Positions 29,014-43,420 of a stretch of DNA of 64,000 nucleotides are shown one piece after another. Source of the DNA: a phage; NCBI GenBank assembly GCA_014685065.1, contig GCA_014685065.1_4092.2. The stretch is one strand, 5' to 3'. The position numbers were made by a program, and so were the translations under genes. Numbering within the stretch: position 1 is the stretch's first letter; each line of letters opens with the position of its first letter. The notes under the pieces were generated by a model. It searched no databases and had not been told where the DNA came from. It saw only the letters and a program-made list of their open reading frames with translations.

Positions 29014-30189
29014 CTATTCTGGTAAAATCATTTTCTTCATTTTAACTTGTTGTGTACCTGGACTCTGTTCCTGAAACATAGACCCGTTACCACACCAGTA
29101 CACCTCATTAGTCCCTACTAACGCGTATAACACACCAGAACCACCTTGTACTGAAAATGCATTAACATCTGGTGCAACATCCATATCCTCATATTGTACC
29201 TGGTGGTAATAAGATCTTTCTGATGCAGTAGTAACAGGCCAACCAAGAGGAACACCACTACCACATGTATAAAGTTTACCATTCTGTGTCATTGCCATTA
29301 TAAAATAATTCAAACTGTGATTGTTCATCGACCCAGCATCTGGTATAATACCACTAATTGCAGGAGTGGTACTAAATGGACTCATGATAATAGTAGTGTC
29401 GCCATACCCTATTCCTAAACAATAATCAGTGTTTTTTCCAGCAGTATATACATTAATCTTATTTCTATTGGATGTAAGTACTGAAGTGGTTTCAGGAGTA
29501 CATGAAATACCAATAACTGTTCCAGATATATCAGTACTTACTGTAAATGTGGATAGTTTAGATGAACTTGAACCTAGGTTATAACTTGCATTATTACCAC
29601 ATCTGTAATATTGTCCATTTTTTACAAAATGGAAAGCACCACCCGACTGTGTTCCTGCGATTAAAGTAACACCCGTGTTAATCAAAATAGGTGTTGATTT
29701 TATTCCAGTAACACCCAATTCACCCCCAGCATTACGGCCTATCCCATATAAGTTACCATCACTTAACAGAATTAACAAAGAACCATTGGATGCGGTAGTT
29801 TCGGTAGAAGCTATATCTTGAACTGTAGTAAGGCTTGGAATTGTAGACAATATAGATGTAATATTAGTCCATCCGGGAACAGGTGATGCAGATACACCGA
29901 CATAGTTCATTTGCCCTGCTAAGTAAAATTCTCCGTCAGTCGTAAGTATAATTGTCCCTGCGAATAAACACCAAACATTAGAAACTTTATATGGACACTG
30001 TACCCACCCATTTTGTACATACTCCGTACTATTATTTCCTAGCCTATAATGTGCACCACTTCCACGTAGATATAAGTTACCACTATCAAATAACATACCC
30101 ATATGTGATGACGATGTACTAATCTTTAATACACCAGAAGGTGCAGGTTTAATATTTCCATACTTAACCATTCTTGCAAAAGGTAACAT
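29014..30189 (-). CDS. RCC1-like beta-propeller protein with MLPF leader
   Basis: start set at MLPFARMVKYGNI preceded by AAGGAGG; track N-terminal extension rejected. Confidence 0.7.
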   Translation of the reverse strand: MLPFARMVKYGNIKPAPSGVLKISTSSSHMGMLFDSGNLYLRGSGAHYRLGNNSTEYVQNGWVQCPYKVSNVWCLFAGTIILTTDGEFYLAGQMNYVGVSASPVPGWTNITSILSTIPSLTTVQDIASTETTASNGSLLILLSDGNLYGIGRNAGGELGVTGIKSTPILINTGVTLIAGTQSGGAFHFVKNGQYYRCGNNASYNLGSSSSKLSTFTVSTDISGTVIGISCTPETTSVLTSNRNKINVYTAGKNTDYCLGIGYGDTTIIMSPFSTTPAISGIIPDAGSMNNHSLNYFIMAMTQNGKLYTCGSGVPLGWPVTTASERSYYHQVQYEDMDVAPDVNAFSVQGGSGVLYALVGTNEVYWCGNGSMFQEQSPGTQQVKMKKMILPE

Positions 30190-30259
30190 ATTTCCTCCTT
30201 TATTCATTATACTATATTTAATCAAAAAGAAAAGCCAGTACTCTGTACTGGCCTATATT
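30190..30259 (-). promoter_or_regulatory. cassette intergenic module
   Basis: GCCAGTACTCTGTACTGGC hairpin + T-run, TATAAT, AAGGAGG, ATG. Confidence 0.65.
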
Positions 30260-30997
30260 TTATACTGAATTGTTAGGATAATATCTCCCATTTCCCCATA
30301 TTATTCGCACAGCACCACCACCAGCAGCCGTATAAGAAGAATTATCCCATATACTACCACCACCACCATACATCTTACCAGCACCACCACTACCAGCACC
30401 ACCATTATATGAACCACCGTAGCTACCACCAATACCATTAGCACCTTGAACAATGATACCAGTACCACCACCCGTACCAATGAACGAGGTATTATAGAAT
30501 GTACCACCGCCCCCGCCGCCGCCAGCACCATTTTCACCAGTGATTGCATCTCCGTTACCACCTTTACCTGTGTAGCCACCAGCACCACCACCAATGACTG
30601 CACCACCACTTACACCAGTATTGCCACCATTACCACCACCATCATTAATAGCGTTAGCAGCTTTTCCACCTAGTCCACCAACCGTATATGCACCAGTGAA
30701 GCTAACACATAGTTTTTCAGTTCCACGATATAAACCGTTTTCAACTGGTGTAGTAGTGTTGGTATGCGTAAGAGAAACACTTAAGTACTCACCACTAGTA
30801 ACCGGAATATTATTACGCCACGATAAGCCGCCGCCAGCACCACGTTGACCACCCGGCGAAATAACACATACTGATATTTCGGTAACGCCAGCAGGAACTG
30901 TAAATTGTGTTGTTCCTATTGTCGTGATTAATTGTTCACCATGTGGCTTATATTCAATTTCATTCCCGTACTTAATCATTCTTCCAAAAGGTAACAT
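30260..30997 (-). CDS. glycine-rich protein carrying the same MLPF leader (not a propeller)
   Basis: MLPFGRMIKYGN then long GGxGG tracts. Confidence 0.65.
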   Translation of the reverse strand: MLPFGRMIKYGNEIEYKPHGEQLITTIGTTQFTVPAGVTEISVCVISPGGQRGAGGGLSWRNNIPVTSGEYLSVSLTHTNTTTPVENGLYRGTEKLCVSFTGAYTVGGLGGKAANAINDGGGNGGNTGVSGGAVIGGGAGGYTGKGGNGDAITGENGAGGGGGGGTFYNTSFIGTGGGTGIIVQGANGIGGSYGGSYNGGAGSGGAGKMYGGGGSIWDNSSYTAAGGGAVRIIWGNGRYYPNNSV

Positions 30998-31069
30998 AAT
31001 TCCCTCCTTTATTCATTATAATATATTTAATACAAAAAGAAAAGCCAGTACTGAGTACTGGCTATTATA
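30998..31069 (-). promoter_or_regulatory. cassette intergenic module
   Basis: hairpin GCCAGTACTGAGTACTGGC 31044-31062 + T-run, TATAAT, AAGGAGG. Confidence 0.65.
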
Positions 31070-32257
31070 TTATAATTGTCGGGGTGTATCTAGTACATAT
31101 CTAGTTGTACTAGGACCACCATCATCATAAGTTCCGGTTGAATATATATTTTTCATATCAGTTAGAAATGTACGATATGAACCTCTATATATTTTTATTT
31201 TATCATACATAGAATATGTTATTTGTGTAGGCATTGGACATGCAGTAAACTTACCAACAGTTGCACTAGTACCAATACCCAATGAACCAGCATAACTACT
31301 GGCATTTAAACCAGTTGCATATACACCAGTACTCGTAATTAGTATACTAGATTGTGGTGGGTATCCAGTATGAATTGAATACAAAGTACCGGGTGGTAAC
31401 GTCGTACTGTTATTTCCTAAAACTCCATTAACAGAGCTAGATGTAGTGTTATTTCCCCATGCCCCATTATTAGCTAACCCACCGACAAGGAACTGACGTG
31501 CTCCTGTATTTGGATTTTCAACTAAAGCACTTACTGCACCAGTTGAGCATCCTGTGTATTGTAACGTTTTTGTGTATGTTGTATTTGGTTGATATAAAGT
31601 ATATTCATTATATGAAGTCCATGTAGTCGCGGAACTTATACCGGATGTAACACCACCAATATATAAATTATTTTGTTTATCAAACAACAATACACAGTTA
31701 TTTGTTGACTGTATTTGTGCAATATCAACATTAGGTGTGACCGCTTTTACAAATGAACCATCGGTTATTTCATAAGTAGTTCCTGTACCATCTGCGAATT
31801 GTCTAGCACTGTTCCACCCTGTACTCCATATTGTATTATTATCCATTAACACAGTAAACCACGTAGTACCTCCATACATCTGTTTAATTGAAGTACTTGA
31901 ACTTTGTGTGTACAAATTTTGAATATATTGGTTATAACTTAAAAACGTAGTAGTACTAGTTGATAAACCAATATGACTACCATATCCACAGTAATAATAA
32001 TTTGAGTCATTGTCTTTTACTAATAAAGTTCCTTGTGTAAGCCAGCAATCGTTAACGTTTTCTCTAATTAATGTCCATGATTTTAATGCAGTGTTGTTTC
32101 CTCTACCGAATTTCCCAAAACTATTATTCCCACGTGCATATAGTTGACCATCCGTATACAGAACCACAACATCTAAATCAGTTGGGATTATTTTCTTAAT
32201 TTGAAGTGGTACTGGGGCAATATTCCCATAATTCATCATTCTTGCAAAAGGTAACAT
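31070..32257 (-). CDS. RCC1-like beta-propeller protein with MLPF leader
   Basis: MLPFARMMNYGNI; blades such as LYARGNNSFGKFGRGN. Confidence 0.7.
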   Translation of the reverse strand: MLPFARMMNYGNIAPVPLQIKKIIPTDLDVVVLYTDGQLYARGNNSFGKFGRGNNTALKSWTLIRENVNDCWLTQGTLLVKDNDSNYYYCGYGSHIGLSTSTTTFLSYNQYIQNLYTQSSSTSIKQMYGGTTWFTVLMDNNTIWSTGWNSARQFADGTGTTYEITDGSFVKAVTPNVDIAQIQSTNNCVLLFDKQNNLYIGGVTSGISSATTWTSYNEYTLYQPNTTYTKTLQYTGCSTGAVSALVENPNTGARQFLVGGLANNGAWGNNTTSSSVNGVLGNNSTTLPPGTLYSIHTGYPPQSSILITSTGVYATGLNASSYAGSLGIGTSATVGKFTACPMPTQITYSMYDKIKIYRGSYRTFLTDMKNIYSTGTYDDGGPSTTRYVLDTPRQL

Positions 32258-32328
32258 AAATTCCTCCTTTATTCATTATACTATATTTAATACAAATAAG
32301 AAAGCCAGTACAGAGTACTGGCATTAAA
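32258..32328 (-). promoter_or_regulatory. cassette intergenic module
   Basis: hairpin 32304-32322 + T-run, TATAAT, AAGGAGG. Confidence 0.65.
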
Positions 32329-33477
32329 TCATTGTATAAATGACATATCAACTTCTGTATAACTAAGAATGTTTTGTCCAGCAATTCCCCCCATTACTAC
32401 CATAGCATACCCACAATAATATAATTGCTCAGTGTCCGTAAGTATAAGTGAACCAGATGGAGTGCGTACCAAATTACACGAACTATTAAACGAAGTATAC
32501 GAAGGAGTATATGAGTACTGATTAATATTATTACCAACACCTAATTGACCAAATCCATTCGACCCAGATGCGTATAGAACTTCATCACCTTTAGCTATAT
32601 GTGATGCCATGTTACTAACACACGTATATAGAGTATAAACTCCTGAACTCAATAATGTCGGAGTTTTGTATTGTATATCGGTAGATGAAGAAGTACCACC
32701 TGTGCCAAATTCGTTCCCGTATTGTGCACCGAACTGTTTACCACAAGCGTACAAATTATTATCCGATTTAATAAAAAATGTACTCTGATAACTTACATCA
32801 AAATCTATAACATCTGAAGCAATCATCGTCACCCCAGTAATAGAAGTTTGATTACCTGTACCTAACTGATAGTAATAGTTAAAACCACAACCCCATAAAG
32901 TATTATCTTCTTTTAGGTATATGTTACCAACTGCCTTTTTAACCGAAGTTATAGTATCTACCCTTTTGAATGTGTTAAAAGAATTAATGTTTGTACCATC
33001 ACCAAATGATGATAGGTTCGAGTTATTGTTAACTCCACAACAATACAACGTACCATCGTTTGTTATCAAATTCACCTTCATATCATTAAAACTACTCATG
33101 TATTTTATATCAGAAACATTAATACCACCTGATGTTATCCACGTAGTACAGTCCGTCCACAAAGTTTTTGTATCAGTTACACCAGTGAATGCCTTCGTGT
33201 TACCAGTGATAAAAACTTTTCCAGTACCTTTCTCTTCATACAATTGACAACTACTACTGTTATCTTCCAATAGAACTCGTTTAACATTCTCTGCACAAAG
33301 AATAAATTTACTCGATGCTACACCTGTTCCAGTACCCCAATTCGTCGCAGAAGATGCATACAACTTATTAGTATAAGTATCATGAAGATACATAGAATCA
33401 CTTGAATATATTTTAAAACGCCTATCCTTACCAGGGGCAATATTCCCATAATTCATCATTCTTGCAAAAGGTAACAT
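32329..33477 (-). CDS. RCC1-like beta-propeller protein with MLPF leader
   Basis: MLPFARMMNYGNI; LYASGSNGFGQLGVGN. Confidence 0.7.
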   Translation of the reverse strand: MLPFARMMNYGNIAPGKDRRFKIYSSDSMYLHDTYTNKLYASSATNWGTGTGVASSKFILCAENVKRVLLEDNSSSCQLYEEKGTGKVFITGNTKAFTGVTDTKTLWTDCTTWITSGGINVSDIKYMSSFNDMKVNLITNDGTLYCCGVNNNSNLSSFGDGTNINSFNTFKRVDTITSVKKAVGNIYLKEDNTLWGCGFNYYYQLGTGNQTSITGVTMIASDVIDFDVSYQSTFFIKSDNNLYACGKQFGAQYGNEFGTGGTSSSTDIQYKTPTLLSSGVYTLYTCVSNMASHIAKGDEVLYASGSNGFGQLGVGNNINQYSYTPSYTSFNSSCNLVRTPSGSLILTDTEQLYYCGYAMVVMGGIAGQNILSYTEVDMSFIQ

Positions 33478-33548
33478 ATTTCCCTCCTTTATTCATTATA
33501 CTATATTTAATACAAATAAGAAAGCCAGTACAGTGTACTGGCATTATA
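33478..33548 (-). promoter_or_regulatory. cassette intergenic module
   Basis: hairpin 33524-33542 + T-run, TATAAT, AAGGAGGG. Confidence 0.65.
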
Positions 33549-34688
33549 TTATTTCCACGGTAGAAGTGAATCAGGAACCCTTGTTGGTACAGTAGTTGAA
33601 GACATTCCAGTAAGATTGGGTACACCACATGTGTATAAATTATTATATTCGTCAACTAACATCGTATAAGAATAGCTCTTACAAAAACTACTAAGATTAC
33701 TACCTTCTAATGCAGTAAGATCCATTTCAGCGAATGATGTTATATACATATCAGTTGTACCAATACCACATTGACCATTTGAATTAAGGCCACATGAAAA
33801 TAACTTATTATTATTATTAATTATACAGGATGGTCCGGTAAGGTTTGTCCCAAGCTCACCCACCAACTCCACTTCTCCTTGGAATGATAAATTTGGAATT
33901 AATGTACTCATTGGGGCTACTGACCTATTTCCTGTACCTGCTTGTCCATAGTCGTTAATAGATGCAACTTTAACATTACCATCATTAAGAAATATATAAG
34001 AAGTTTCATTTGTATTGACTGCTTTAATTGCATTACTAATCGAAGTATCTTGTGTAAATGTGAGCAAGTTTTGTGTCGTCGTTCCTGATACAAACGTTCT
34101 ACCTGCATACCAATATGAACCATCATTTAGTACTAATCCAGTACTATATATTGCACAACCAGCACTGATAACATTTTCTATTGTACTATAGGTGAATCGT
34201 GAAACGCTTGAAGTTGATCCATTCCCAAAAACACCACCAGTACCAGCACCACAGTAGAACCACTTTCCATTTTTTAAAAATACACGCATACACGAAGATA
34301 TCACAACACTATCAATATCATCTGCACTGACACCGAAATCAGTAAAGTTCTGTGTTATATCAACCCAAACGCCGTTAGTGTTTGAAGATAGTATTGGAAT
34401 AACAGTACGTCTACCAGTGTACCAAATAGTACCATCTTTCTTTATAGCAATTGTTCCTTGTACCCCACCCCAATATCGTGTAACATTTGAGTTGACAAGA
34501 GTCCATTCAGTTGAAGAGTCCAATGAACCATTACCACTTTGTCCATATGCTGAAGAACCAAACCAATATAGATTGCCATTTGTGTGTAAATAAAATTTGG
34601 CATCAGCAGAACATTGTAACCTGTTTTTAGGTAGAATCAGTTCAGGTGCGATATTCCCGTACTTAACCATTCTTGCAAAAGGTAACAT
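33549..34688 (-). CDS. RCC1-like beta-propeller protein with MLPF leader
   Basis: start set at MLPFARMVKYGNI; LFSCGLNSNGQCGIGT, YWFGSSAYGQSGNGS. Confidence 0.7.
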   Translation of the reverse strand: MLPFARMVKYGNIAPELILPKNRLQCSADAKFYLHTNGNLYWFGSSAYGQSGNGSLDSSTEWTLVNSNVTRYWGGVQGTIAIKKDGTIWYTGRRTVIPILSSNTNGVWVDITQNFTDFGVSADDIDSVVISSCMRVFLKNGKWFYCGAGTGGVFGNGSTSSVSRFTYSTIENVISAGCAIYSTGLVLNDGSYWYAGRTFVSGTTTQNLLTFTQDTSISNAIKAVNTNETSYIFLNDGNVKVASINDYGQAGTGNRSVAPMSTLIPNLSFQGEVELVGELGTNLTGPSCIINNNNKLFSCGLNSNGQCGIGTTDMYITSFAEMDLTALEGSNLSSFCKSYSYTMLVDEYNNLYTCGVPNLTGMSSTTVPTRVPDSLLPWK

Positions 34689-34758
34689 ATTCCCTCCTTT
34701 ATTTGTTATACTATATTTAATACAAATAAGAAAGCCAGTACAGTGTACTGGCATTATG
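34689..34758 (-). promoter_or_regulatory. cassette intergenic module
   Basis: hairpin 34734-34752 + T-run, TATAAC, AAGGAGGG. Confidence 0.65.
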
Positions 34759-35868
34759 TTATTTTGGTAAATCAATTTTAGTAAAGACTGCAACATCCTC
34801 GATTGCACCTGGAATGGCGTAATACGATCCAGTACTATACACATCTCCATTTTTGGTTAATATCGATGTCAAACCATCACTAAAAAGAACATCCCTAATC
34901 TCACTAACTTCAACGGGTAATTGTAAATTGGTAGCACTATATATAGCACCAGTTTGAGAATTGTTTAATCCCAAACCACGGTTCGCCCCAACACCCTTCT
35001 GATATGTACTAGTAATTACCATTTGTGTAGCAGTATTTAAGGCAGGTGAATTCGTCATAAACAATGGAGAACTATTAGGCAAAGTACTTACAGGAACTGC
35101 ACGGAATGTAGTCGTACCTGAACTAAGAAAGTTTGGAGTTTGACCACATACGAAATATGATGTACCATTATAGTAATTTAATGCATTACCACCAATGGCT
35201 GCATCGATTACACCAGAACTACGCAATCCCCAAGTGTTAATTTGTGTTTGGTTCCCCGTACCATGCTGCCCACTACTATTCCATCCAGAACTATATAGCT
35301 TATTATCTAATGTAAGATACATACTATCATTCGCATTGGTCATTACTTTACGAACGTTCGTAGCACATTGAGTTAATGTGTAAATTGATGAGGAACCAAT
35401 ACCCAAAGAACCACGATATCCATTATCTCCTGCACCATAGAGTACTGAATTAGTGCTAAGTACAAATATTAAACCATTTGTACATACAATATTAGCAATT
35501 TCACTTACTGGTATAGCATTGGTAAACCAATTAGTTCTTTCAACTAATACAGTACTGTAAGAAGTAGTTGTAGAAGATGAGAACCAGTACGTTTGACCTG
35601 ATGTCCATATCGTATTATCATTTTTAATAATAACAAGTGTACGATCACCCACGAAAAAATTAGAAACATCTGCACTTACTAATGTCCACGAAGACACCGT
35701 GTTGGTATTACCATTTCCAGATTCACCACCTTGATTTCTACCTATGTAATATAAATCATGTGAATCAGTCAATAAGAATTGGCCTTGGGTAGAAGCACCA
35801 ACTTTAATTATTTTTTTAGGACCAGGGACAATATTTCCATACCTAATCATTCTTCCAAAAGGTAACAT
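34759..35868 (-). CDS. RCC1-like beta-propeller protein with MLPF leader
   Basis: start set at MLPFGRMIRYGNI (RBS AGGAGGG); tightly coupled to upstream gene. Confidence 0.7.
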   Translation of the reverse strand: MLPFGRMIRYGNIVPGPKKIIKVGASTQGQFLLTDSHDLYYIGRNQGGESGNGNTNTVSSWTLVSADVSNFFVGDRTLVIIKNDNTIWTSGQTYWFSSSTTTSYSTVLVERTNWFTNAIPVSEIANIVCTNGLIFVLSTNSVLYGAGDNGYRGSLGIGSSSIYTLTQCATNVRKVMTNANDSMYLTLDNKLYSSGWNSSGQHGTGNQTQINTWGLRSSGVIDAAIGGNALNYYNGTSYFVCGQTPNFLSSGTTTFRAVPVSTLPNSSPLFMTNSPALNTATQMVITSTYQKGVGANRGLGLNNSQTGAIYSATNLQLPVEVSEIRDVLFSDGLTSILTKNGDVYSTGSYYAIPGAIEDVAVFTKIDLPK

Positions 35869-35876
35869 ATTCCCTC

Positions 35877-37079
35877 CTATTGTTGCCATAACTGCGTTGG
35901 CATTAATGTTAGTGTAGTAATACTATAAGTACCATTAGGTAATCTACCACCATTTCCATTCCAGCCACCACATGCATATAATTTATAATCTTTAGTAATT
36001 ATTATGGTTCTGCTCCAATCTTTAGATGCCATAAGAACATTGTCATAACCACCACTTATTGCACTAAGATTAAAAATATTCCAAGTTCTAACTAATGTAT
36101 TAGTTCCATTACCTTCTTGACCATATGAGTTAGCACCACTACTTCTAACATATGGTGCGTATTGTGCCATAGGTGCACCAATTGATGCATTTCCCATATT
36201 ACTTGGACAAATAAAAGTACTGTACTTACTTACATCAACCGTGACCGATGTGTTCCTAATTGGTGTTAGCTGATTTACCGATGTAGTCGTACCATTACCA
36301 GCTTGTCCAGTACTGTTAGCCCCGCTATAATATACAGACCCACCAGTAGTAAACCACCAAGTAACATCGTATGTAGTACTAATATGTTCTACATTACTAA
36401 TCACGAATTTGTTCAAATATACAACAGAACTACCACCACATCCACTTTCACCAAAGTTATCCTTACCACAAAACCATGCATCTTTATTTGATTTGATATA
36501 GTGCGTTCCTTGTAATGAACATGCCATATGTGTAACTTCACCCATATTAGTCATAACTGTGAGTGTAGGGATGGAATTTTTATTACCAGAGCCACATTCA
36601 CCATTGGTATTTCTTCCACACGCAATTACTCTACCATCGGTTAATAATATTCTAGTACTTTCACCTATATATACACTCTTGATCATATTAGCCATAACAC
36701 CTATTTTATTAAATGCAACAGTAACATCAGTCCATGTTGTCAAATAACCATTAACAGGTGTTGCATCTCCATAATCAGAAAATGCACCAACCGACCCAGT
36801 GTAGTATATTTTATTATCCAAATCAATCATCAATGAACCTTGAACACCAAGCCAAAAGGCTGCACAGTTCCTTGCAAGTACTGTAAATGACGAAACTGCT
36901 GCTGAATTCCCAAGACCAAATTGATAAAAGTTATTACTACCATAACCATATAAAGTATTAGTTGGGTTATGGAGATACATACAGTTTGTATAATGTTGTT
37001 GTAAAACATCTGAGAACTCTACAGGTTCTGGACCTGGTGCAATATTTGCGTACTTAACCATTCTTCCAAAAGGTAACAT
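35877..37079 (-). CDS. RCC1-like beta-propeller protein with MLPF leader, first gene of cassette
   Basis: MLPFGRMVKYANI; RBS AAGGAGGGAAA. Confidence 0.7.
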   Translation of the reverse strand: MLPFGRMVKYANIAPGPEPVEFSDVLQQHYTNCMYLHNPTNTLYGYGSNNFYQFGLGNSAAVSSFTVLARNCAAFWLGVQGSLMIDLDNKIYYTGSVGAFSDYGDATPVNGYLTTWTDVTVAFNKIGVMANMIKSVYIGESTRILLTDGRVIACGRNTNGECGSGNKNSIPTLTVMTNMGEVTHMACSLQGTHYIKSNKDAWFCGKDNFGESGCGGSSVVYLNKFVISNVEHISTTYDVTWWFTTGGSVYYSGANSTGQAGNGTTTSVNQLTPIRNTSVTVDVSKYSTFICPSNMGNASIGAPMAQYAPYVRSSGANSYGQEGNGTNTLVRTWNIFNLSAISGGYDNVLMASKDWSRTIIITKDYKLYACGGWNGNGGRLPNGTYSITTLTLMPTQLWQQ

Positions 37080-37128
37080 ATTTCCCTCCTTTATTTGTTA
37101 TATCATATTTACCACAAAAAGAAAACCC

Positions 37129-37157
37129 TTGACATCCTTTCTGGACTCATTTATAAT
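37129..37157 (+). promoter_or_regulatory. consensus sigma70 promoter TTGACA - 17 nt - TATAAT for tandem array A; divergent from cassette
   Basis: TTGACA 37129-37134, TATAAT 37152-37157; RBS AAGGAG before ATG 37181. Confidence 0.75.
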
Positions 37158-37180
37158 AGAAAAAATATAAGGAGAAATTC

Positions 37181-37426
37181 ATGAACAATGTAATAGATCA
37201 CTACCAAGCACTTAGCCAAAGTACTAAGAACTATATGAGCTACATGAACGCAGAAGATTTCGCATTCTTCCTCTCAAAATTCTGTGCAATCAATACCCTC
37301 AAAAAAAGTACTACCCCAACAAGTGCACTTATGTTGAATTGCTTTATAGAGGACATCTTTGAGGGACTACAAAACCCTGACGAAAGTAAACGATTCATTA
37401 ACCTTTTAGTACTGGCATCTATATGA
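37181..37426 (+). CDS. array A paralog (divergent, 81 aa)
   Basis: first gene after promoter; C-terminal LLVLASI resembles member at 38468. Confidence 0.55.
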   Translation: MNNVIDHYQALSQSTKNYMSYMNAEDFAFFLSKFCAINTLKKSTTPTSALMLNCFIEDIFEGLQNPDESKRFINLLVLASI

Positions 37427-37632
37427 CCCAAGAACAAATTATGCAGTACTACCTATGTGCTCTGTCAAAAGGTGAACAGAATAGCATAGAGCATCAACAA
37501 ATTATACTTGCAAATGCAAAACGTTCGGCACTTCTGCTTAACTCAGTCAGAAATAACCTCATAAGGAATTTCCTTGAAGGTAACGAGTCTATGCAGTACT
37601 ATTTCATCTTAACACTATTAATCGAGTACTAA
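37423..37632 (+). CDS. array A paralog
   Basis: ATGA overlap; ends ...FILTLLIEY. Confidence 0.55.
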   Translation: MTQEQIMQYYLCALSKGEQNSIEHQQIILANAKRSALLLNSVRNNLIRNFLEGNESMQYYFILTLLIEY

Positions 37633-37633
37633 T

Positions 37634-37843
37634 ATGAATACTGAACATAAAGAATTCTACACCAAATACCTTAGCAACGAAGAACAATTGTTTCTAAGGA
37701 GTGTATCACCTTTAAGTATAGATACACCACACGCCAGAGATTGCTTTAATAATTGTATACGTAGTACTATAGAAGCAATCGAATGTAATAACAAAAATAT
37801 TATGTACTCAGGTTTAATAGGACTAATATATTTCTATGAATAA
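37634..37843 (+). CDS. array A paralog
   Basis: MNTEHKEFYTKYL ... LIGLIYFYE. Confidence 0.55.
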   Translation: MNTEHKEFYTKYLSNEEQLFLRSVSPLSIDTPHARDCFNNCIRSTIEAIECNNKNIMYSGLIGLIYFYE

Positions 37844-38030
37844 TCATAAAGATTTCTATTGTAGTAAACTACCCAAACAAGAACAGCTATCATTCTCTTT
37901 AGCACCACCTATGAGAAAGGATAATCTGTATTATAATTACGATTTCAGGATGGTGACACGTTATGCAATAGAACATACGTTCCCTGCAACTAAGTACCGC
38001 TCTATCCTGAACCTCATCTTTAAGTTCTAA
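37836..38030 (+). CDS. array A paralog
   Basis: MNNHKDFYCSKLP ... LNLIFKF. Confidence 0.55.
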   Translation: MNNHKDFYCSKLPKQEQLSFSLAPPMRKDNLYYNYDFRMVTRYAIEHTFPATKYRSILNLIFKF

Positions 38031-38082
38031 AAGGTACACCAAGGACCGAGTACTTTAATATAGTAAGGCTAATTACATTATA

Positions 38083-38268
38083 ATGAATCATATAAGCTAC
38101 TACTACCAACAACTATCCGACAGAGACAAGTACAGTCACAACTCCCATGTGTGGTACTACAAACGCGGCAGTATAAGAGACAAACAACATTACTTCTGTA
38201 TTTCTATTAAAGAAGCACTAACAACTAAGTACACGTACCGAGCAGTACTTAAACTTATTGAAATGTAA
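38083..38268 (+). CDS. array A paralog
   Basis: MNHISYYYQQL ... VLKLIEM. Confidence 0.5.
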   Translation: MNHISYYYQQLSDRDKYSHNSHVWYYKRGSIRDKQHYFCISIKEALTTKYTYRAVLKLIEM

Positions 38269-38276
38269 GGAAGAAA

Positions 38277-38459
38277 ATGAATATAGAATTCTATTTAACT
38301 AAACTACAACACGCCGAAAGATTCAATTTCAATAAGTTCAGTATTTTCTACAATTGCGGGAACAAAAAAGATAAACACACCTTCCTATATGTCGTCACAA
38401 GAGATGCACAAAACGAAAAGTACACATACAGAGAAGTAATGAAACTAATCGCTATTTAA
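38277..38459 (+). CDS. array A paralog
   Basis: RBS AAGGAAGAAA; ends ...VMKLIAI. Confidence 0.5.
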   Translation: MNIEFYLTKLQHAERFNFNKFSIFYNCGNKKDKHTFLYVVTRDAQNEKYTYREVMKLIAI

Positions 38460-38467
38460 GGAATACT

Positions 38468-38647
38468 ATGCAACAATTCTATATAGAACGTATAACCATA
38501 AAAGACCGTTTCATGTACGACACCTTCGTTGATTACTACAACCTAGGAACAAAAAGTACTAAAAATATTAATCTCAATAGCTGCATTTATGCTGTACTAA
38601 CACAAGATAATCCCTACAGGGAAATCCTCGCCTTGGCATCTATATAA
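38468..38647 (+). CDS. array A paralog (59 aa, below track cutoff)
   Basis: hand-translated MQQFYIERITIKDRFMYD...REILALASI; RBS AAGGAA. Confidence 0.45.
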   Translation: MQQFYIERITIKDRFMYDTFVDYYNLGTKSTKNINLNSCIYAVLTQDNPYREILALASI

Positions 38648-38657
38648 AGGAAACCAA

Positions 38658-39329
38658 ATGAAACTTAATGCACACAGCAAACAATACCTTAAGCACTTTA
38701 AGTACCTCAATAGTATTCAGGCAGAATCAGTTACATCTGCATATACGTATCACCCGAATGTACTAAAGAAACGAAATAAAAAGGAAAAAACCAGTACAAA
38801 TGGAGTTAACGTATCAAAGAACCTTGAATTGTACATGAAGAAAAATAATATAGCTGTTCATTATATGAATATCTATAATACTGATTTAAAAGTATTGAGT
38901 ACTAATACGAGCATGAAGGTACTAAAGAACGCATCCTTCATCATCCATATGCAGTTGGATAATACCCCGTGCACTTTAATGCTATACTTCGGGAATACAT
39001 ACTTCTTCGGGAATTGTAACACCTCCCACGATGTCAATACAGCACAATTCCAAATGGGTGGCATATACAATATGGGTTCAAAAAAAGTACACGAGAATAT
39101 GCACTTCTGGCAAGCACAACGTACAGAAGAAACTAAATCAATTGTAGATTTCCTCAAAGAACTAGAACACAAAGAACTACAGGAAGAAGAACTATTCATG
39201 TACAGTACTGTAATCGATAATCCAGTACTCTATAAAAACGCGTACAATCTGACAAAACATGTACAGGAAATTATCAGTACTAATAAGAAAATGCATCACC
39301 TCATTACGTATATTACAAACTATGTATAA
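38658..39329 (+). CDS. hypothetical protein (223 aa) embedded in array A
   Basis: RBS AAGGAAA; unrelated to the 60-aa paralogs. Confidence 0.55.
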   Translation: MKLNAHSKQYLKHFKYLNSIQAESVTSAYTYHPNVLKKRNKKEKTSTNGVNVSKNLELYMKKNNIAVHYMNIYNTDLKVLSTNTSMKVLKNASFIIHMQLDNTPCTLMLYFGNTYFFGNCNTSHDVNTAQFQMGGIYNMGSKKVHENMHFWQAQRTEETKSIVDFLKELEHKELQEEELFMYSTVIDNPVLYKNAYNLTKHVQEIISTNKKMHHLITYITNYV

Positions 39330-39504
39330 AGAATACTATATCTCTAAACTACCCGTGCAGCAAAAATACTTTGCTGCATACAAAGTTCTTCTCATAACTC
39401 GTGCCGCTCGATCTAACTACATGAATAGCGTAAAACGTGCTATAGAAAATGATGACGCAATGAACCAGTACTATAACATTTTACTACTAATATATAAGTA
39501 CTAA
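39322..39504 (+). CDS. array A paralog
   Basis: MYKEYYISKLP ... YNILLLIYKY; overlaps previous stop. Confidence 0.55.
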   Translation: MYKEYYISKLPVQQKYFAAYKVLLITRAARSNYMNSVKRAIENDDAMNQYYNILLLIYKY

Positions 39505-39514
39505 AGAGAACAAC

Positions 39515-39697
39515 ATGCACAAAGAATACTACAGGGATAAAATACCTATGCATCTCCAGCACCATATACCAACAGAACCAATAGGAATAAAAGATCACGC
39601 AAAGATAATGTTCCAACAATGTACTAAGTACACGCTCATATACGATGATAATCCATATATGCTGTACTACGTAGTAATGCTAACATTCAGGTACTAA
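39515..39697 (+). CDS. array A paralog
   Basis: MHKEYYRDKIP ... VVMLTFRY. Confidence 0.55.
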   Translation: MHKEYYRDKIPMHLQHHIPTEPIGIKDHAKIMFQQCTKYTLIYDDNPYMLYYVVMLTFRY

Positions 39698-39698
39698 T

Positions 39699-39890
39699 AT
39701 GAATAACCACAAAGAATACTACATAGAGAAACTCCCAATGTATCTCCAACACCTTGTACCAACAGAACCATTGGGTATAGAAAAAAACTACGAAAAAGAC
39801 TACTTCATTCAGTGCACTAAATCCTCGATATATATTGAAGACTATAATCGAGTACTGTATCACATCCTTTTACTAATATATAAGTACTAA
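39699..39890 (+). CDS. array A paralog
   Basis: MNNHKEYYIEKLP ... ILLLIYKY. Confidence 0.55.
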   Translation: MNNHKEYYIEKLPMYLQHLVPTEPLGIEKNYEKDYFIQCTKSSIYIEDYNRVLYHILLLIYKY

Positions 39891-39891
39891 T

Positions 39892-40074
39892 ATGCACAAA
39901 GAATACTACACACAATTTCTCCCCAGCATTTTTGAACACTACGCCAGATATAAAGTCCCTCTGGATAACGATTTGGCAGTACTGGGATTCAATAACTGCA
40001 TAGAACGAAGTATAGAAAATAGTAGTAGTTATGACCAGCTATATAACACTATCCTACTTATATTCAGGTACTAA
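39892..40074 (+). CDS. array A paralog
   Basis: MHKEYYTQFLP ... TILLIFRY. Confidence 0.55.
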   Translation: MHKEYYTQFLPSIFEHYARYKVPLDNDLAVLGFNNCIERSIENSSSYDQLYNTILLIFRY

Positions 40075-40075
40075 C

Positions 40076-40264
40076 ATGCATAAAGAATACTACACAAAAT
40101 ATTTCCCAATGTACCTCAGAACTAATCTATTAGATAAACCTCGCGGTATCAATGCACAAAATGATAAAGTGTATTTTACTATGTGCACTAAAGCATGTAT
40201 ACTAGATTTTGACAGCTACCATCGAGTACTGTATCATACCCTGTACCTAGCTTTCGTATTCTAA
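40076..40264 (+). CDS. array A paralog
   Basis: start set to MHKEYYTKYFP (ATG 40076) ... LYLAFVF. Confidence 0.55.
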   Translation: MHKEYYTKYFPMYLRTNLLDKPRGINAQNDKVYFTMCTKACILDFDSYHRVLYHTLYLAFVF

Positions 40265-40273
40265 GAGAACAAT

Positions 40274-40459
40274 ATGCATAAAGAATTCTACTTAAGCCAT
40301 CTGGATCTAAACTCCCAAATGCTTATACCACTAATCCCAATAGATATCAAGGATAAGAAAAATACCGAACAATTCATTTACCATACACAGTGTGCGATCA
40401 CCCCAAATTACATTCCATATGAATTGTACTACATTCTCGCCCTAATATATAGGTACTAA
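40274..40459 (+). CDS. array A paralog
   Basis: MHKEFYLSHL ... ILALIYRY. Confidence 0.55.
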   Translation: MHKEFYLSHLDLNSQMLIPLIPIDIKDKKNTEQFIYHTQCAITPNYIPYELYYILALIYRY

Positions 40460-40460
40460 T

Positions 40461-40646
40461 ATGCATAGAGAATACTACACACAATTTGTTAAAGGGAACT
40501 ACAAACATGCCGTACCCAGAACCCCTTTAAATTCTCATGACCCAAGTACTATATTCTTGTTTAATGACGCAATACGTACAGTACTCAATACTAAAGATGA
40601 AGATGTGCAGTACGTATTCTTACTATTACTTATATACAGACACTAA
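40461..40646 (+). CDS. array A paralog
   Basis: MHREYYTQFV ... LLLLIYRH. Confidence 0.55.
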   Translation: MHREYYTQFVKGNYKHAVPRTPLNSHDPSTIFLFNDAIRTVLNTKDEDVQYVFLLLLIYRH

Positions 40647-40651
40647 CTAAT

Positions 40652-40834
40652 ATGAATAAAGAACATAAAGAATTCTATATAAGAAAACTAACATTCGTCC
40701 CCGTAAGAATATATAAAGAATGCGACCCAAGATTATACCTATGGCACTTCAATGAGTGCATAAAAGATTCTATATACCCTAAGAACTATAAAGAACAATT
40801 GTGCTCAGTACTAACACTAGTACTATCATATTAA
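40652..40834 (+). CDS. array A paralog
   Basis: MNKEHKEFYIRKL ... LTLVLSY. Confidence 0.55.
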   Translation: MNKEHKEFYIRKLTFVPVRIYKECDPRLYLWHFNECIKDSIYPKNYKEQLCSVLTLVLSY

Positions 40835-40849
40835 TTAATAGAGAATACT

Positions 40850-41041
40850 ATGTATAAAAACTTCTATATAAGTAAACTAAAAGAAAATGAACAAGTATGG
40901 ATTAGATCTATAATTCCACTGGCATTTAATAGATATGCATTTAACAGATGTACCGAGATTGCTATAGACCCTTATAATATTAAAGAGAATGTACAGTATA
41001 ATCAGTACTACTATATCTTAATGCTTATATATAGGAAGTAA
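40850..41041 (+). CDS. array A paralog (last member)
   Basis: MYKNFYISKL ... YILMLIYRK. Confidence 0.55.
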   Translation: MYKNFYISKLKENEQVWIRSIIPLAFNRYAFNRCTEIAIDPYNIKENVQYNQYYYILMLIYRK

Positions 41042-42215: not shown

Positions 42216-42382
42216 CTAAATCAAAATTTTTATTTTATTTTTTCCAATAGTTCCCCTACCGCGTGGGGATGGTTTCCCCGCAGTATCTGGAGTTAGATTT
42301 TTCTGAATCTGGAATCATTATCCCCGTTTTCGCCTGGTATGTCAACCGTCTGGATGAATAATTTTAAAAAATAATCTAGTAC

Positions 42383-42435
42383 TGAATTTTGGGCGTAACT
42401 ATGCACCCGGTGGGCTTGAGTCTTTCTCGACTTGA
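42383..42435 (+). repeat. repeated element ACTGAATTTTGGGCGTAA...GCACCC...TTTCTCG, copy 1
   Basis: second copy at 42596-42650; shorter third copy near 42028. Confidence 0.55.
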
Positions 42436-42595
42436 TGAAACTATTATACAGTACTGAAAAAATAAAGCAATACCCTAAACGCAAAAAGTTTTAATTAATT
42501 TGCTTGCCATCCTGGGGCGTACTATGGTACTATATTTCAGTACTGAGAAAGTGCTATGACCTGCTAAGGTGCGGGAGTGTATCCTTTTTAAATTT

Positions 42596-42650
42596 ACTGA
42601 ATTTTGGGCGTAATTCCGCACCCCCAGGGGTATCCGCTTTCTCGCGTCTA
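42596..42650 (+). repeat. repeated element, copy 2
   Basis: actgaattttgggcgtaattccgcacccccaggggtatccgctttctcgcg. Confidence 0.55.
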
Positions 42651-42899
42651 TGTAGTAATTATACGCTTTTTCGGTGCTGAGTCAATAGCTAAAAACAAAA
42701 TAATTGAAAATAATTTAACGCGTTTAAACGGCCCGTAAAGCCCTGGTTAGCTGGTGGCGGTGCAAATGTATAGCTTAGGTGTATTAATGCGTTAGAAAGC
42801 GGCTGAGGCCGTTTTATGGTGTATAGTACTGATTCAGTACTGAAAGATAGTTCCCCTATATAGAAAGAAAACTATTTTAAAAGTATTTGTAGAAAGTAC

Positions 42900-42960
42900 T
42901 TGCAAAGTATTGGGAAAGGTGTAGAATGTTTTACATCGAGACGGGGGATACGCTCCCGAC
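42900..42960 (+). promoter_or_regulatory. PeSL-like module: promoter (TTGCAA ... TAGAAT) + leader stem-loop
   Basis: agtacttgcaaagta ... gtagaatgttttacatcgagacgggggatacgctcccg. Confidence 0.55.
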
Positions 42961-42984: not shown

Positions 42985-43347
42985 ATGGCGACTCAAATCA
43001 ATACTATCATGCTTAACCTGGTTTCTTTCCGTGAAGAGATGAAAGATCTTCCCGCTGAGACTGTACGGATTCACATTGCAGCTTATCGGGAATTGATTGC
43101 AATGCTGCCGCTTAAGCGTGAACAGTACGCCGCTACTGCAATGCTGGACGCAATGATACATAAGATGATCCAGACTGATTTAACGATGGCTTATCAGTAC
43201 ATGGGCGAAATGTTTGCAGTGTATAGCAAGCCAGTACCAGGAATGGAAAGTACAGAAGTATTGCACGGCTTAAACTTAAAACAAGATGCATGGGATAATA
43301 TGCCTCGTTTCCTGGTATGGGCTGACAGCGGCAAGATTTACGAATAA
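42985..43347 (+). CDS. hypothetical protein
   Basis: first gene of GC-richer block; RBS AAGAG. Confidence 0.55.
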   Translation: MATQINTIMLNLVSFREEMKDLPAETVRIHIAAYRELIAMLPLKREQYAATAMLDAMIHKMIQTDLTMAYQYMGEMFAVYSKPVPGMESTEVLHGLNLKQDAWDNMPRFLVWADSGKIYE

Positions 43348-43361
43348 GTTTAATAAAGTAC

Positions 43362-43420
43362 TTGCAAACTAAGTTTAAAAGCGTATAATGTTTTACATCA
43401 GGTGGGGAATAGTTCCCCAC
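43362..43420 (+). promoter_or_regulatory. PeSL-like module: TTGCAA-16-TATAAT + stem-loop GTGGGGAATAGTTCCCCAC
   Basis: TTGCAA 43362-43367, TATAAT 43384-43389, hairpin 43402-43420. Confidence 0.65.

Follow-up and report, generated by a model that had tools for sequence, protein, structure and literature searches.

A repeated hairpin, promoter-like and leader module at the gene boundaries of a reshuffled Asteriusvirus cassette array

The closest known system to the module described here is the PeSL of T4-like phages. A PeSL (promoter-early stem-loop) is a small intergenic composite that joins a terminating stem-loop and an A/T-rich tract to a promoter, a Shine–Dalgarno sequence and a start codon. 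Conservation over ~100 bp makes it a site of homologous exchange, in which the indels and replacements that separate close relatives have their end points. The promoters carry full E. coli sigma-70 −35 and −10 elements and are early, and the position of the stem-loop varies, with five subclasses described. PeSLs are scattered, at about 50 per genome, before unrelated ORFans in hyperplastic regions, and the formation of excised mini-circles is a further trait of theirs (Arbiol et al. 2010, PMC2839356; Comeau et al. 2014, PMC4122927). By sequence anatomy, the array module resembles them in combining a stem-loop with a promoter-like block that ends in a Shine–Dalgarno sequence and start codon. 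It is likewise repeated in plastic regions, its breakpoints coincide with the motif, and a moved gene would keep its own regulation. In contrast to PeSLs, it has a fixed architecture with no −35 box and an invariant late-promoter-like box, and all copies reside in one paralogue array rather than before dispersed ORFans. The array unit also runs 40-45 nt into the coding region, giving every cassette the same N-terminal peptide.

T-even phages package a highly diverse set of proteins into the virion; a short N-terminal targeting sequence is all that these have in common, and related phages are polymorphic for them (PMC3012670). The array offers an analogy to these internal proteins, as unrelated folds share a short leader and are detected in virion preparations. 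However, the leader does not resemble in sequence the T4 capsid targeting sequence (CTS), which the prohead protease cleaves at L/I-x-E in proteins packed inside the head. In tailspikes and other receptor-binding proteins, a conserved N-terminal anchor is joined to swappable C-terminal domains that recombine at the conserved part, and several paralogues may be present per virion. The array differs in that its conserved part is only ~13 residues long and its bodies are single globular propeller or lectin-like domains as opposed to trimeric fibres.

The array belongs to an Asteriusvirus jumbo coliphage of the PBECO4/121Q/SP27/G17 group. The same genes have been described as “eleven RCC1-like proteins” in phAPEC6 (PMC7247149) and as 121Q_234-248 (PMC5259590), and they have been treated as DNA-condensation candidates or duplications (PMC7247149, PMC5259590). 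None of the literature searched describes the module as a composite, its common leader or gene shuffling at its copies, and the Sharanji and fEgEco12 papers contained nothing relevant on the array. In the window (the whole 64-kb stretch of DNA that was analysed), ten genes on the minus strand all start with MLPF.RM.KYGN. The features are given below in the direction of transcription.

37080-37126, minus strand: outer promoter-like region of the array, with a T-run (37116-37125), TAAATA (37106-37111), TG-A-TATAAC (37097-37105) and GGAGG (37085-37089) but no hairpin
35877-37079, minus strand: cassette D, 400 aa, RCC1-like propeller, start MLPFGRMVKYANI; a decayed hairpin-like GCCAACGCAGTTATGGC lies within its 3′ end
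35869-35876, minus strand: coupled junction between D and A, 8 nt, ribosome site only
34759-35868, minus strand: cassette A, 369 aa, RCC1-like; translation truly begins with the leader ATG (35868) and not with the longer ORF from 35889
34689-34758, minus strand: module 1, hairpin 34734-34752, T-run, TTAAATATAGTATAAC AAATAAAGGAGG at 34693-34720
33549-34688, minus strand: cassette E, 379 aa, RCC1-like
33478-33548, minus strand: module 2, hairpin 33524-33542, promoter-like block and Shine–Dalgarno sequence 33483-33510
32329-33477, minus strand: cassette C, 382 aa, RCC1-like
32258-32328, minus strand: module 3, hairpin 32304-32322, promoter-like block and Shine–Dalgarno sequence 32263-32290
31070-32257, minus strand: cassette B, 395 aa, RCC1-like
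30998-31069, minus strand: module 4, hairpin 31044-31062 (9 bp), promoter-like block and Shine–Dalgarno sequence 31003-31030
30260-30997, minus strand: cassette G, 245 aa, glycine-rich body (phrog_4474) unrelated to RCC1, array leader MLPFGRMIKYGNE
30190-30259, minus strand: module 5, hairpin 30234-30252 (extends to 10 bp), promoter-like block and Shine–Dalgarno sequence 30194-30221
29014-30189, minus strand: cassette K, 391 aa, RCC1-like
27863-29005, minus strand: cassette N, 380 aa, RCC1-like, in a coupled junction with K (8 nt, 29006-29013); its last codons include TAAATATAATATAA (27863-27876), left over from a promoter-like block
26673-27852, minus strand: cassette I, broken, a 269-aa ORF (27043-27852) followed by an out-of-frame 3′ remnant (26673-27042); coupled by 10 nt to N (27853-27862) and by 10 nt to H (26663-26672)
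25493-26662, minus strand: cassette H, 389 aa, RCC1-like
25422-25492, minus strand: decayed sixth module, hairpin GCCAGTGC-CTT-GTACTGGC at 25467-25485, T-run, CTAAATATAATAA, GGAGG
25287-25421, minus strand: truncated terminal cassette remnant, 44 aa, MLPFRRII...

The array products are nine RCC1-like beta-propellers and one unrelated glycine-rich protein. Membership was judged by a match to Pfam PF00415, PF13540 or PF25390 above the curated cut-off together with a seven-blade propeller fold. Eight of the ten cassettes match PF00415 or PF13540 above cut-off, cassette I matches PF25390 only and below cut-off, and cassette G has no match to the RCC1 repeat families of Pfam. The AF2 model of cassette E is a 7-blade propeller (pLDDT 87.6) that aligns with UVR8, the HERC2 RLD and RCC1 at TM 0.7-0.78. 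The array, cassette G excepted, is thus of the RCC1-like repeat propeller type. A homologue search with cassette E yielded 14 proteins in total, every one on a contig of Asteriusvirus size, and gave no functional clue from outside. The break in cassette I is identical in all six genomes that carry this cassette.

Each of the five intergenic modules, ~71 bp long, carries a hairpin of 8 bp that includes GC pairs, followed by a T-run, the boxes TAAATA (invariant) and TATAAT, and a strong ribosome site. The minus-strand hairpin GCCAGTAC-N3-GTACTGGC is found in all five gaps, with a one-mismatch sixth copy at 25467-25485, giving six matches where 0.00 are expected (100 shuffles). A 28-nt block, TTAAATATAGTATAATGAATAAAGGAGG, is also present in each of the five gaps with 0-2 mismatches, and none is expected by shuffling. 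These searches and the alignment bear out the original prediction of five near-identical gaps, with a sixth copy before the decayed remnant at the 3′ end of the array. The multiple alignment that it had proposed shows near-identity from just 5′ of the hairpin to approximately codon 13. Module and leader together form a repeated block of ~110-115 bp at most gene starts, and of ~55 bp at coupled starts. The coupled junctions are without a module, as had been claimed, with 8, 8 and 10 nt between genes; the fourth, at 26663-26672, follows the out-of-frame remnant of the broken cassette, whose frame ends at 26673.

Neither the hairpin nor the 28-nt block occurs elsewhere in the window. A total of 283 module copies were found across 36 Asteriusvirus records, with copies in every Asteriusvirus record searched, all within the array and at 3-12 per genome, and the other phage records searched contained none. 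A related stem, CAGTAC..GTACTG, occurs once outside the array, at 24340-24357. An Rfam search of 24000-38000 gave sub-threshold chance matches only.

The original prediction read the hairpin and U-run as a terminator. The canonical features are all in place: a GC-containing stem-loop on the transcribed strand, directly followed by a U-rich tract. The stem is 8-10 bp with 5 GC pairs, is followed by UUUCUUAUUU or UUUUCUUUUU, and has a centroid energy of about −13.5 kcal/mol. It is kept while the loop varies from 3 to 8 nt, and the T-run always follows it on the coding strand. A terminator scan scored all six hairpins as terminator-like, with 16 such sites in the region against 5.8 expected. The same hairpins are annotated as ARNOLD terminators in the G17 record and as repeat_region in the UE-S1 record. 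Phage CBB has one junction with the same layout built on an unrelated stem, AGCTCAAC/GTTGGGCT. Covariation analysis of 33 distinct sequences gave no signal beyond shuffles; 89.7% of hairpin cells are paired, a level also reached by 196 of 500 shuffles, and two pairs show double changes. Selection on structure is therefore not separable from plain sequence conservation. The layout of hairpin and T-run nevertheless suggests that the module carries an intrinsic terminator, termination itself being the predicted step.

Downstream of the T-run lies the promoter-like block. TAAATA is invariant in about 107 module copies from 13 genomes and sits 2-3 nt upstream of TATAAT. The latter varies, as the module at 34689-34758 has TATAAC, which is also found in many relatives along with TACAAT and TATGAT. 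Thus, the TATAAT-like element of the original prediction is present in the modules, but the functional box is more likely to be TAAATA, which is T4-late-like and never varies. TAAATA..TATAAT..GGAGG without a hairpin is found upstream of the first array gene in 10 of 10 genomes with covering sequence, whichever cassette comes first. As the block precedes the first gene in every genome covered, a promoter function is plausible. A search of the accessible literature found no usable Asteriusvirus transcriptome.

A T4-type late promoter consists of TATAAATA or ATAAATA at −10 with no need of a −35 element, lies upstream of virion genes, and is served by a gp55-like sigma factor. The phage has a late sigma factor gene. 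The module sequence ATTAAATA matches TATAAATA at 6 of 8 positions with the TAAATA core invariant, so that the late-type reading requires TTAAATA or GTAAATA in place of the ATAAATA consensus. The late genes of phAPEC6 mostly carry (T)ATAAATA 18-50 nt before the ATG. Several have NNTAAATA, including ATTAAATA and GGTAAATA, some have ACTAAATA, and two show the layout ATAAATAT-TTC-TATAAT. The balance tips, provisionally, towards a variant late promoter of the T4 type rather than a sigma-70 one.

It is possible, although doubtful, that the block is instead a host sigma-70 promoter of the −10 type (TATAAT), as in classic PeSLs, and the array would then be an early or middle unit. Most copies have a perfect TATAAT, and the T-rich tract upstream of it occupies the position of an UP-element. 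The outer promoter reads TGATATAAT in most genomes, and the array region contains small early-looking genes with sigma-70 consensus promoters, e.g., at 37129-37157. However, the promoter scan of the modules found no −35 box, the −35 position reading TTTCTT or TTTTCT, and the extended −10 TG (TGnTATAAT) is confined to the outer promoter, with internal copies reading TAGTATAAT. TATAAC, TACAAT and TATGAT lose the critical last T or other key bases, and TATAAC would cripple a sigma-70 −10 box, yet TAAATA is constant. The products are also detected in virion preparations, and such proteins are normally made late.

A promoter-free role for the modules is unlikely. Here, the module would be a terminator, attenuator or RNA-stabilising hairpin only, the array would be read from the outer promoter at ~37097-37111 with partial read-through, and the A/T-rich stretch would be kept by recombination and the needs of translation initiation. 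The missing −35 box, the TATAAC variants and the restriction of the extended −10 TG to the outer promoter are in keeping with this. Coupled cassettes can also be expressed without a promoter of their own, e.g., phAPEC6 gp003, which follows a coupled junction and was detected in virion preparations (PMC7247149). On the other hand, up to ten successive canonical terminators would nearly silence the distal genes, yet the distal products gp009 and gp010 are among the virion-preparation proteins of phAPEC6 (PMC7247149). TAAATA and TA(T/C)(A/G)AT are kept in diverged modules in which other positions have changed and the spacer to GGAG differs in sequence and length. The first gene, which must have a promoter, is preceded by the same boxes.

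The search for changed cassette order in relatives, as the original prediction had proposed, was clearly positive and shows recombinational cassette swapping. The 11 genomes compared contain 30 sequence clusters, of which 22 are full-length gene types, and arrange them differently, with cassettes reordered, inserted, replaced and deleted at the module and leader blocks. Homology ends +28 to +56 (median +46) past the ATG in 37 comparisons. Its upstream limit was taken from 22 module-to-module comparisons and lies at 52-84 nt in 20 of them, the outliers being 106 and 118. The breakpoints therefore bracket module and leader, from the 5′ edge of the hairpin to about 46 nt inside the next gene, and the proposed role of this block as a substrate for swapping holds in these genomes. 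Cassette identity is uneven between the same two genomes (E 100% versus K 88.9%); only this cassette-to-cassette heterogeneity is used as evidence, as flank-identity baselines for an incongruence test are unreliable because the neighbouring small-gene arrays are themselves variable. Variant columns of the module, set against the upstream and downstream cassettes, gave only the expected trend, which is confounded by synteny and carries no weight here. Coupled junctions also recombine, with a ribosome site and leader only. Thus, the hairpin and promoter are not required for shuffling, and the coding leader is the universal exchange site.

That the palindrome acts as DNA, i.e., as the operator of a dimeric regulator, the target of a phage nuclease or recombinase, or an attC-like site, is very improbable. 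In favour of it, the stem sequence itself is conserved and compensatory changes are almost absent, and the related stem outside the array could be taken in the same sense. However, the half-sites lie 3-8 nt apart, too variable a spacing for a rigid dimer, the T-run keeps to one side of the stem, and CBB has a different stem at the same position. The breakpoints are spread across the whole 110 bp and occur at hairpin-less junctions too. All array genes are leader-bearing cassettes, with no integrase or recombinase gene among them. An integron-like array was rejected on the same absence of an integrase in the array, on the 19-nt hairpin versus an attC of 57-141 bp with paired R/L boxes, and on cassettes having their own promoter-like block, those of integrons being promoterless. 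It is scarcely tenable that the repeats are functionless leftovers of tandem duplication, as although the array is a paralogue family for which such duplication has been proposed (PMC7247149), the cassette bodies have a median amino-acid identity of 25% while identity among the modules is about 90% or more at most positions, the synonymous sites of the leader are invariant, and one cassette of unrelated fold has the same module and leader.

The shared leader is 12-13 residues long (MLPF.RM.KYGN), and its 11 copies in the window all lie inside the array. It is found on RCC1-like, glycine-rich, Kelch and LamG-like bodies, and also heads Kelch and lectin-like virion proteins of phage CBB. In the AF2 model of cassette E, residues 1-20 have a pLDDT below 50 and lie outside the propeller. 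The leader codons are fixed in the array (TTA 112/112, CCT 112/112 and AGA 110/112, against 47, 33 and 39% in the bodies), whereas the Pro codon varies in CBB. Some CBB leaders have a protease-site-like L/I-x-E, which is absent from Asteriusvirus, where there is no conserved Glu. Three single IMG/VR matches to the leader pattern (L014-L016) were rejected as short chance ORFs. Mass spectrometry detected six array proteins, encoded downstream of several hairpins, in phAPEC6 virion preparations, at low counts of 1-4 peptides and in a list that also has a topoisomerase and a RecA-like protein (PMC7247149). The most likely role of the leader peptide is to target the protein to the virion or to hold it there.

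Taken together, the module and the first 13-15 codons are probably a portable expression-and-exchange unit for interchangeable genes of virion-preparation proteins. In the minus-strand RNA, the hairpin and T-run would end or attenuate the upstream transcript. TAAATA-N3-TATAAT, 18-25 nt before the AAGGAGG ribosome site, would then restart transcription, most likely as a late promoter of the T4 type that has only a −10 box and is recognised by the phage’s gp55-like sigma factor. With a terminator and a restart promoter at the module, each cassette would be expressed independently. The common N-terminal peptide, outside the folded domain, would most likely serve in virion targeting or anchoring. 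As the blocks are near-identical over ~110-115 bp at most starts or ~55 bp at coupled starts, homologous recombination within them could exchange, insert and delete whole cassette bodies, either within one genome or between co-infecting relatives, leaving expression and the N-terminal tag intact.

More tentatively, and by analogy, the leader may be a universal virion-loading signal of Rak2-like jumbo phages that works like the T4 capsid targeting sequence. Module and leader would then be a dedicated plug-in system through which the phages draw on a large and recombining set of binding domains (RCC1, Kelch, LamG, glycine-rich), any of which could be loaded into the particle or onto its surface. 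If so, such domains might act against host defences as injected effectors, or they might form the tips with which the unexplained “hairy” appendages of phAPEC6 and CBB bind.

The array extends modular shuffling of the PeSL type, previously associated with early ORFans of T4-like phages, to a jumbo-phage lineage and to genes of virion-preparation proteins. The new twist is that the exchange unit enters the coding region, so that swapped genes inherit the same N-terminal tag. The “DNA condensation/RCC1” genes of Asteriusvirus may accordingly be re-framed as a fast-reshuffled repertoire of tagged binding proteins, and a link emerges between the array and structural proteins of the Kelch and lectin-like kinds in CBB and GAP32. 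The leader provides a testable handle on how such proteins enter the virion and on the possible make-up of the hair-like appendages. The array is also a likely source of differences between otherwise near-identical therapeutic jumbo coliphages.

In a sequence search, the central 5 kb of the finding hit the Asteriusvirus jumbo coliphages, with SP27 as the best match (98% identity), followed in order by E9.1, SHEFM2K, PBECO4, slurp01, G17 and 121Q. The window has a single large minus-strand block, in which ten genes are arrayed in tandem from 37079 down to 25493; small plus-strand genes surround it. Every array gene starts with the leader MLPF[GAS]RM.[KN]YGN. By Pfam and PHROGs, nine of the ten encode RCC1-like propellers (phrog_4219). 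The remaining gene (30260-30997) codes for a glycine-rich protein of phrog_4474 that is unrelated to them but bears the same leader. The array and its hairpins had been annotated previously, but piecemeal, in the G17 and UE-S1 records and in two papers (PMC7247149; PMC5259590). At its far end lies a remnant:

25421-25287, minus strand, truncated eleventh array gene

Cassette I (26673-27852) is broken into a 269-aa ORF and an out-of-frame remnant of 380 nt in which a C-terminus typical of the cassettes can still be read. The break is identical in all six genomes carrying I, and the 30-kDa product (phAPEC6 gp007) has nonetheless been detected in virions.

The original prediction described a near-identical intergenic module between many of the array genes, and this observation is confirmed. 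The hairpin GCCAGTAC-N3-GTACTGGC is present in five copies and once more with a single mismatch, against 0 expected in shuffled sequence, and five copies of the 28-nt block TTAAATATAGTATAATGAATAAAGGAGG were found at no more than two mismatches (0 expected). Alignment places the near-identity of the copies between a few bases before the hairpin and approximately codon 13. Coupled junctions, at which two cassettes are joined without a module, are as described, with gaps of 8, 8 and 10 nt; the fourth comes after the broken cassette and its out-of-frame tail.

For comparison of gene orders, arrays were taken from ten annotated relatives, all leaders were located and the products clustered. Together with the window, the 11 genomes yielded 30 clusters: 22 are full-length cassette types, and the others are truncated remnants. 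Within any one genome, a cassette type occurs at most once.

Cassette orders in five arrays (slash, module; equals sign, coupled junction; bracketed number, length of a longer gap in nt)
Window: D=A/E/C/B/G/K=N=I(380)H/L
G17: T/D=A/U/C/O/B/G/K=N=I(380)H/L
SP27: M/D=A/E/C/B/G/F/K(108)I(380)Q/H/L
121Q: C/O/A/E/B/G/Z/F/...
UE-S1: C/W/X/A/F/G/B/P/Y

Among these genomes E is replaced by U, cassettes O, F, T, M and S are inserted, C and A are moved, and the order B/G is inverted to G/B. The order changes occur at module boundaries, with breakpoints that bracket the module and leader. In alignments of the window with G17 and SP27, identity of 99-100% ends sharply, either a few bases before the hairpin or at about +42 to +46 past the ATG. 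Where the upstream side is the same and the downstream side differs (37 distinct comparisons), homology stops between +28 and +56 (median +46). In the reverse situation (22 module-to-module comparisons), its start lies 52-84 nt before the ATG in 20, and at 106 and 118 nt in the two outliers. Module-less junctions also recombine, with the ribosome site and leader only. Within one genome pair, neighbouring cassettes can be 100% or 89% identical, as expected for a mosaic. Judged from the orders in 11 genomes and the breakpoint positions, the recombinational cassette swapping that had been proposed is shown by genome comparison. A separate junction was noted in Salmonella phage SD-15_S21 (L010:9931-10036), where a 13-codon leader runs straight into the next module's hairpin and the whole cassette body between them has been lost by deletion. 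CCAGTAC, in which the join lies, is a microhomology that the hairpin arm shares with the start of B-type bodies (GCCCCAGTAC).

The leader is conserved beyond its amino acids. The cassette bodies of the window have a median amino-acid identity of 25%, and the 39-nt leaders a mean DNA identity of 88%. In all 112 full-length genes compared, Leu2 is encoded by TTA and Pro3 by CCT, and in 110 of them Arg6 is encoded by AGA, compared with a usage of 47, 33 and 39% for these codons in cassette bodies. The leader's Pro codon is variable in the related array of phage CBB. The identity and codon bias are evidence for homogenisation or selection at the DNA level.

With one 71-nt module as the BLAST query, 283 copies were retrieved from 36 phage records, all of them Asteriusvirus, at 3-12 per genome, a number equal to that of the array junctions. 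No copy of module or leader lies outside the array within the 64-kb window, and the leader was not found in a 50-kb structural region of phAPEC6. The module is thus specific to the array rather than a regulatory word used generally by the phage.

The module had also been read as a terminator followed by a promoter. The sequence features of that claim hold, while for its function we infer, on good grounds, a role in transcription. The hairpin and T-run would constitute an intrinsic terminator: the canonical shape is scored for all six hairpins (stem of 8-10 bp, five GC pairs, then UUUCUUAUUU or UUUUCUUUUU), the centroid energy is approximately -13.5 kcal/mol, and the same hairpins were independently called as terminators by ARNOLD in the G17 record. 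Stem and T-run are kept across copies while the loop varies from 3 to 8 nt, and this variable length argues against a dimeric duplex-DNA site. Covariation counts for the hairpin are no higher than in shuffles, the stem being simply conserved, and no Rfam family matches the region searched. One CBB junction has the identical order of elements with another stem sequence; it reads AGCTCAAC-TTAG-GTTGGGCT, followed by a T-run and GTAAATAC (L018:4629-4705). Outside the array, between two plus-strand genes at 24337-24360, lies the hairpin ATCCAGTAC-TTAATA-GTACTGGAT, with the stem CAGTAC...GTACTG of the modules and its T-run on the minus strand. A terminator is annotated there in G17, and it may be a backstop for minus-strand read-through or a bidirectional terminator.

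For the promoter, the favoured reading of the module box is a candidate variant late-type, -10-only promoter. A promoter must exist upstream of the first array gene, and TAAATAT-RR-TATAA..AAGGAGG is found there, without the hairpin, in 10 of the 10 genomes with fetched coverage, whichever cassette leads. The diverged modules of UE-S1, ph0011 and JNE01 retain the hairpin, T-run, (G/T)TAAATA(T/C), TA(T/C)(A/G)AT and GGAG, with other positions and the spacer before GGAG altered; TAAATA is the sole box without variation. The structural region of phAPEC6 includes an annotated late sigma gene, and (T)ATAAATA lies 18-50 nt upstream of the ATG of its late genes; this motif was predicted for late genes of this phage group in the CBB paper (PMC5259590). 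Some of these genes have ATTAAATA, ACTAAATA or GGTAAATA, and two have ATAAATAT-TTC-TATAAT-like layouts. A sigma-70 promoter in the module is a live rival. The outer copy is TGATATAAT, an extended -10, in most genomes; the internal copies are TAGTATAAT, lack a -35 box and, in a subset, read TATAAC. No Asteriusvirus transcriptome was found in the literature searched. Over the whole window, 13.9 +/- 3.4 copies of the T4-type late promoter word TATAAATA would be expected and only two are present, a deficit consistent with an early-gene region that avoids late promoters.

Other repeats lie nearby. A second tandem array (37181-41000, plus strand) adjoins and diverges from the first, with many genes of ~60 aa spaced at ~190 bp, repeated start regions (...GGTACTAATATGCATAAAGAATACTAC) and a gene number that differs among relatives. 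A perfect sigma-70 consensus promoter (TTGACA-17-TATAAT; 37129-37157, plus strand) faces away from the first array, its -35 box inside that array's outer control region. Among plus-strand small genes, repeated intergenic elements (42380-42449 and 42595-42664; 42874-42937 and 43336-43399) hold sigma-70-like boxes (TTGCAA...TAGAAT/TATAAT) or GC-rich stem-forming stretches, and may be true PeSL-type elements. At 21551-24331 (plus strand), eight ORFs of 104-141 aa follow one another directly, each stop codon touching or overlapping the next start codon, in an order conserved in all relatives.

Among described systems, the PeSL of T4-like phages comes closest; it is a composite of ~100 bp made of a stem-loop terminator, A/T-rich tract, promoter and SD, which is repeated in hyperplastic regions and through which modular shuffling has been shown (PMC2839356; PMC4122927). 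The array module resembles it in anatomy and breakpoint evidence. However, it lacks a full sigma-70 early promoter, its copies are not scattered before unrelated ORFans, and its exchange unit also includes the coding leader. The leader may be analogous to the T4 capsid targeting sequence, which internal proteins of otherwise different kinds have in common (PMC3012670). In the literature searched, neither the composite module nor the common leader was found described, nor any shuffling at the module.

Mass spectrometry of phAPEC6 lists six array proteins as virion-associated (gp003, 005, 006, 007, 009 and 010), at low peptide counts and alongside some clearly non-structural proteins (PMC7247149). 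The AlphaFold model of cassette E predicts a confident seven-blade propeller (pLDDT 87.6) resembling UVR8, the HERC2 RLD and RCC1 (TM 0.7-0.78), with residues 1-20 modelled at low confidence outside the fold. Scanning IMG/VR with the leader DNA pattern recovered phage CBB, of another genus (Mimasvirus). Its CBB_548-554 are seven tandem minus-strand genes (L018:872-6140; KU574722.1, 350196-355464), each starting MLPF with Y[AG]N at residues 10-12; MLPF[APS]R..[KEQ]Y[AG]N fits five of them. The bodies are Kelch propellers or LamG/ConA-like domains. According to the available text of the CBB paper, which makes no mention of a common N-terminal leader, five of the seven are structural proteins confirmed by mass spectrometry (2-7 peptides each), and GAP32_001 is an RCC1-like virion protein (PMC5259590). 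The CBB annotation links CBB_548, 549 and 553 to GAP32_530, 531 and 002. Upstream of CBB_554 (L018:6141-6300), a solo leader is fused to the apparent C-terminal end of a cassette of the glycine-rich G type (GGAVRIIYG...); this fusion would be the scar of a deletion.

Since array genes of another genus also bear the leader, on other bodies, it appears to be an old, protein-level feature of a virion-protein family whose binding-type domains are interchangeable. Asteriusvirus has elaborated on it with the uniform terminator-promoter module and with frozen codons.
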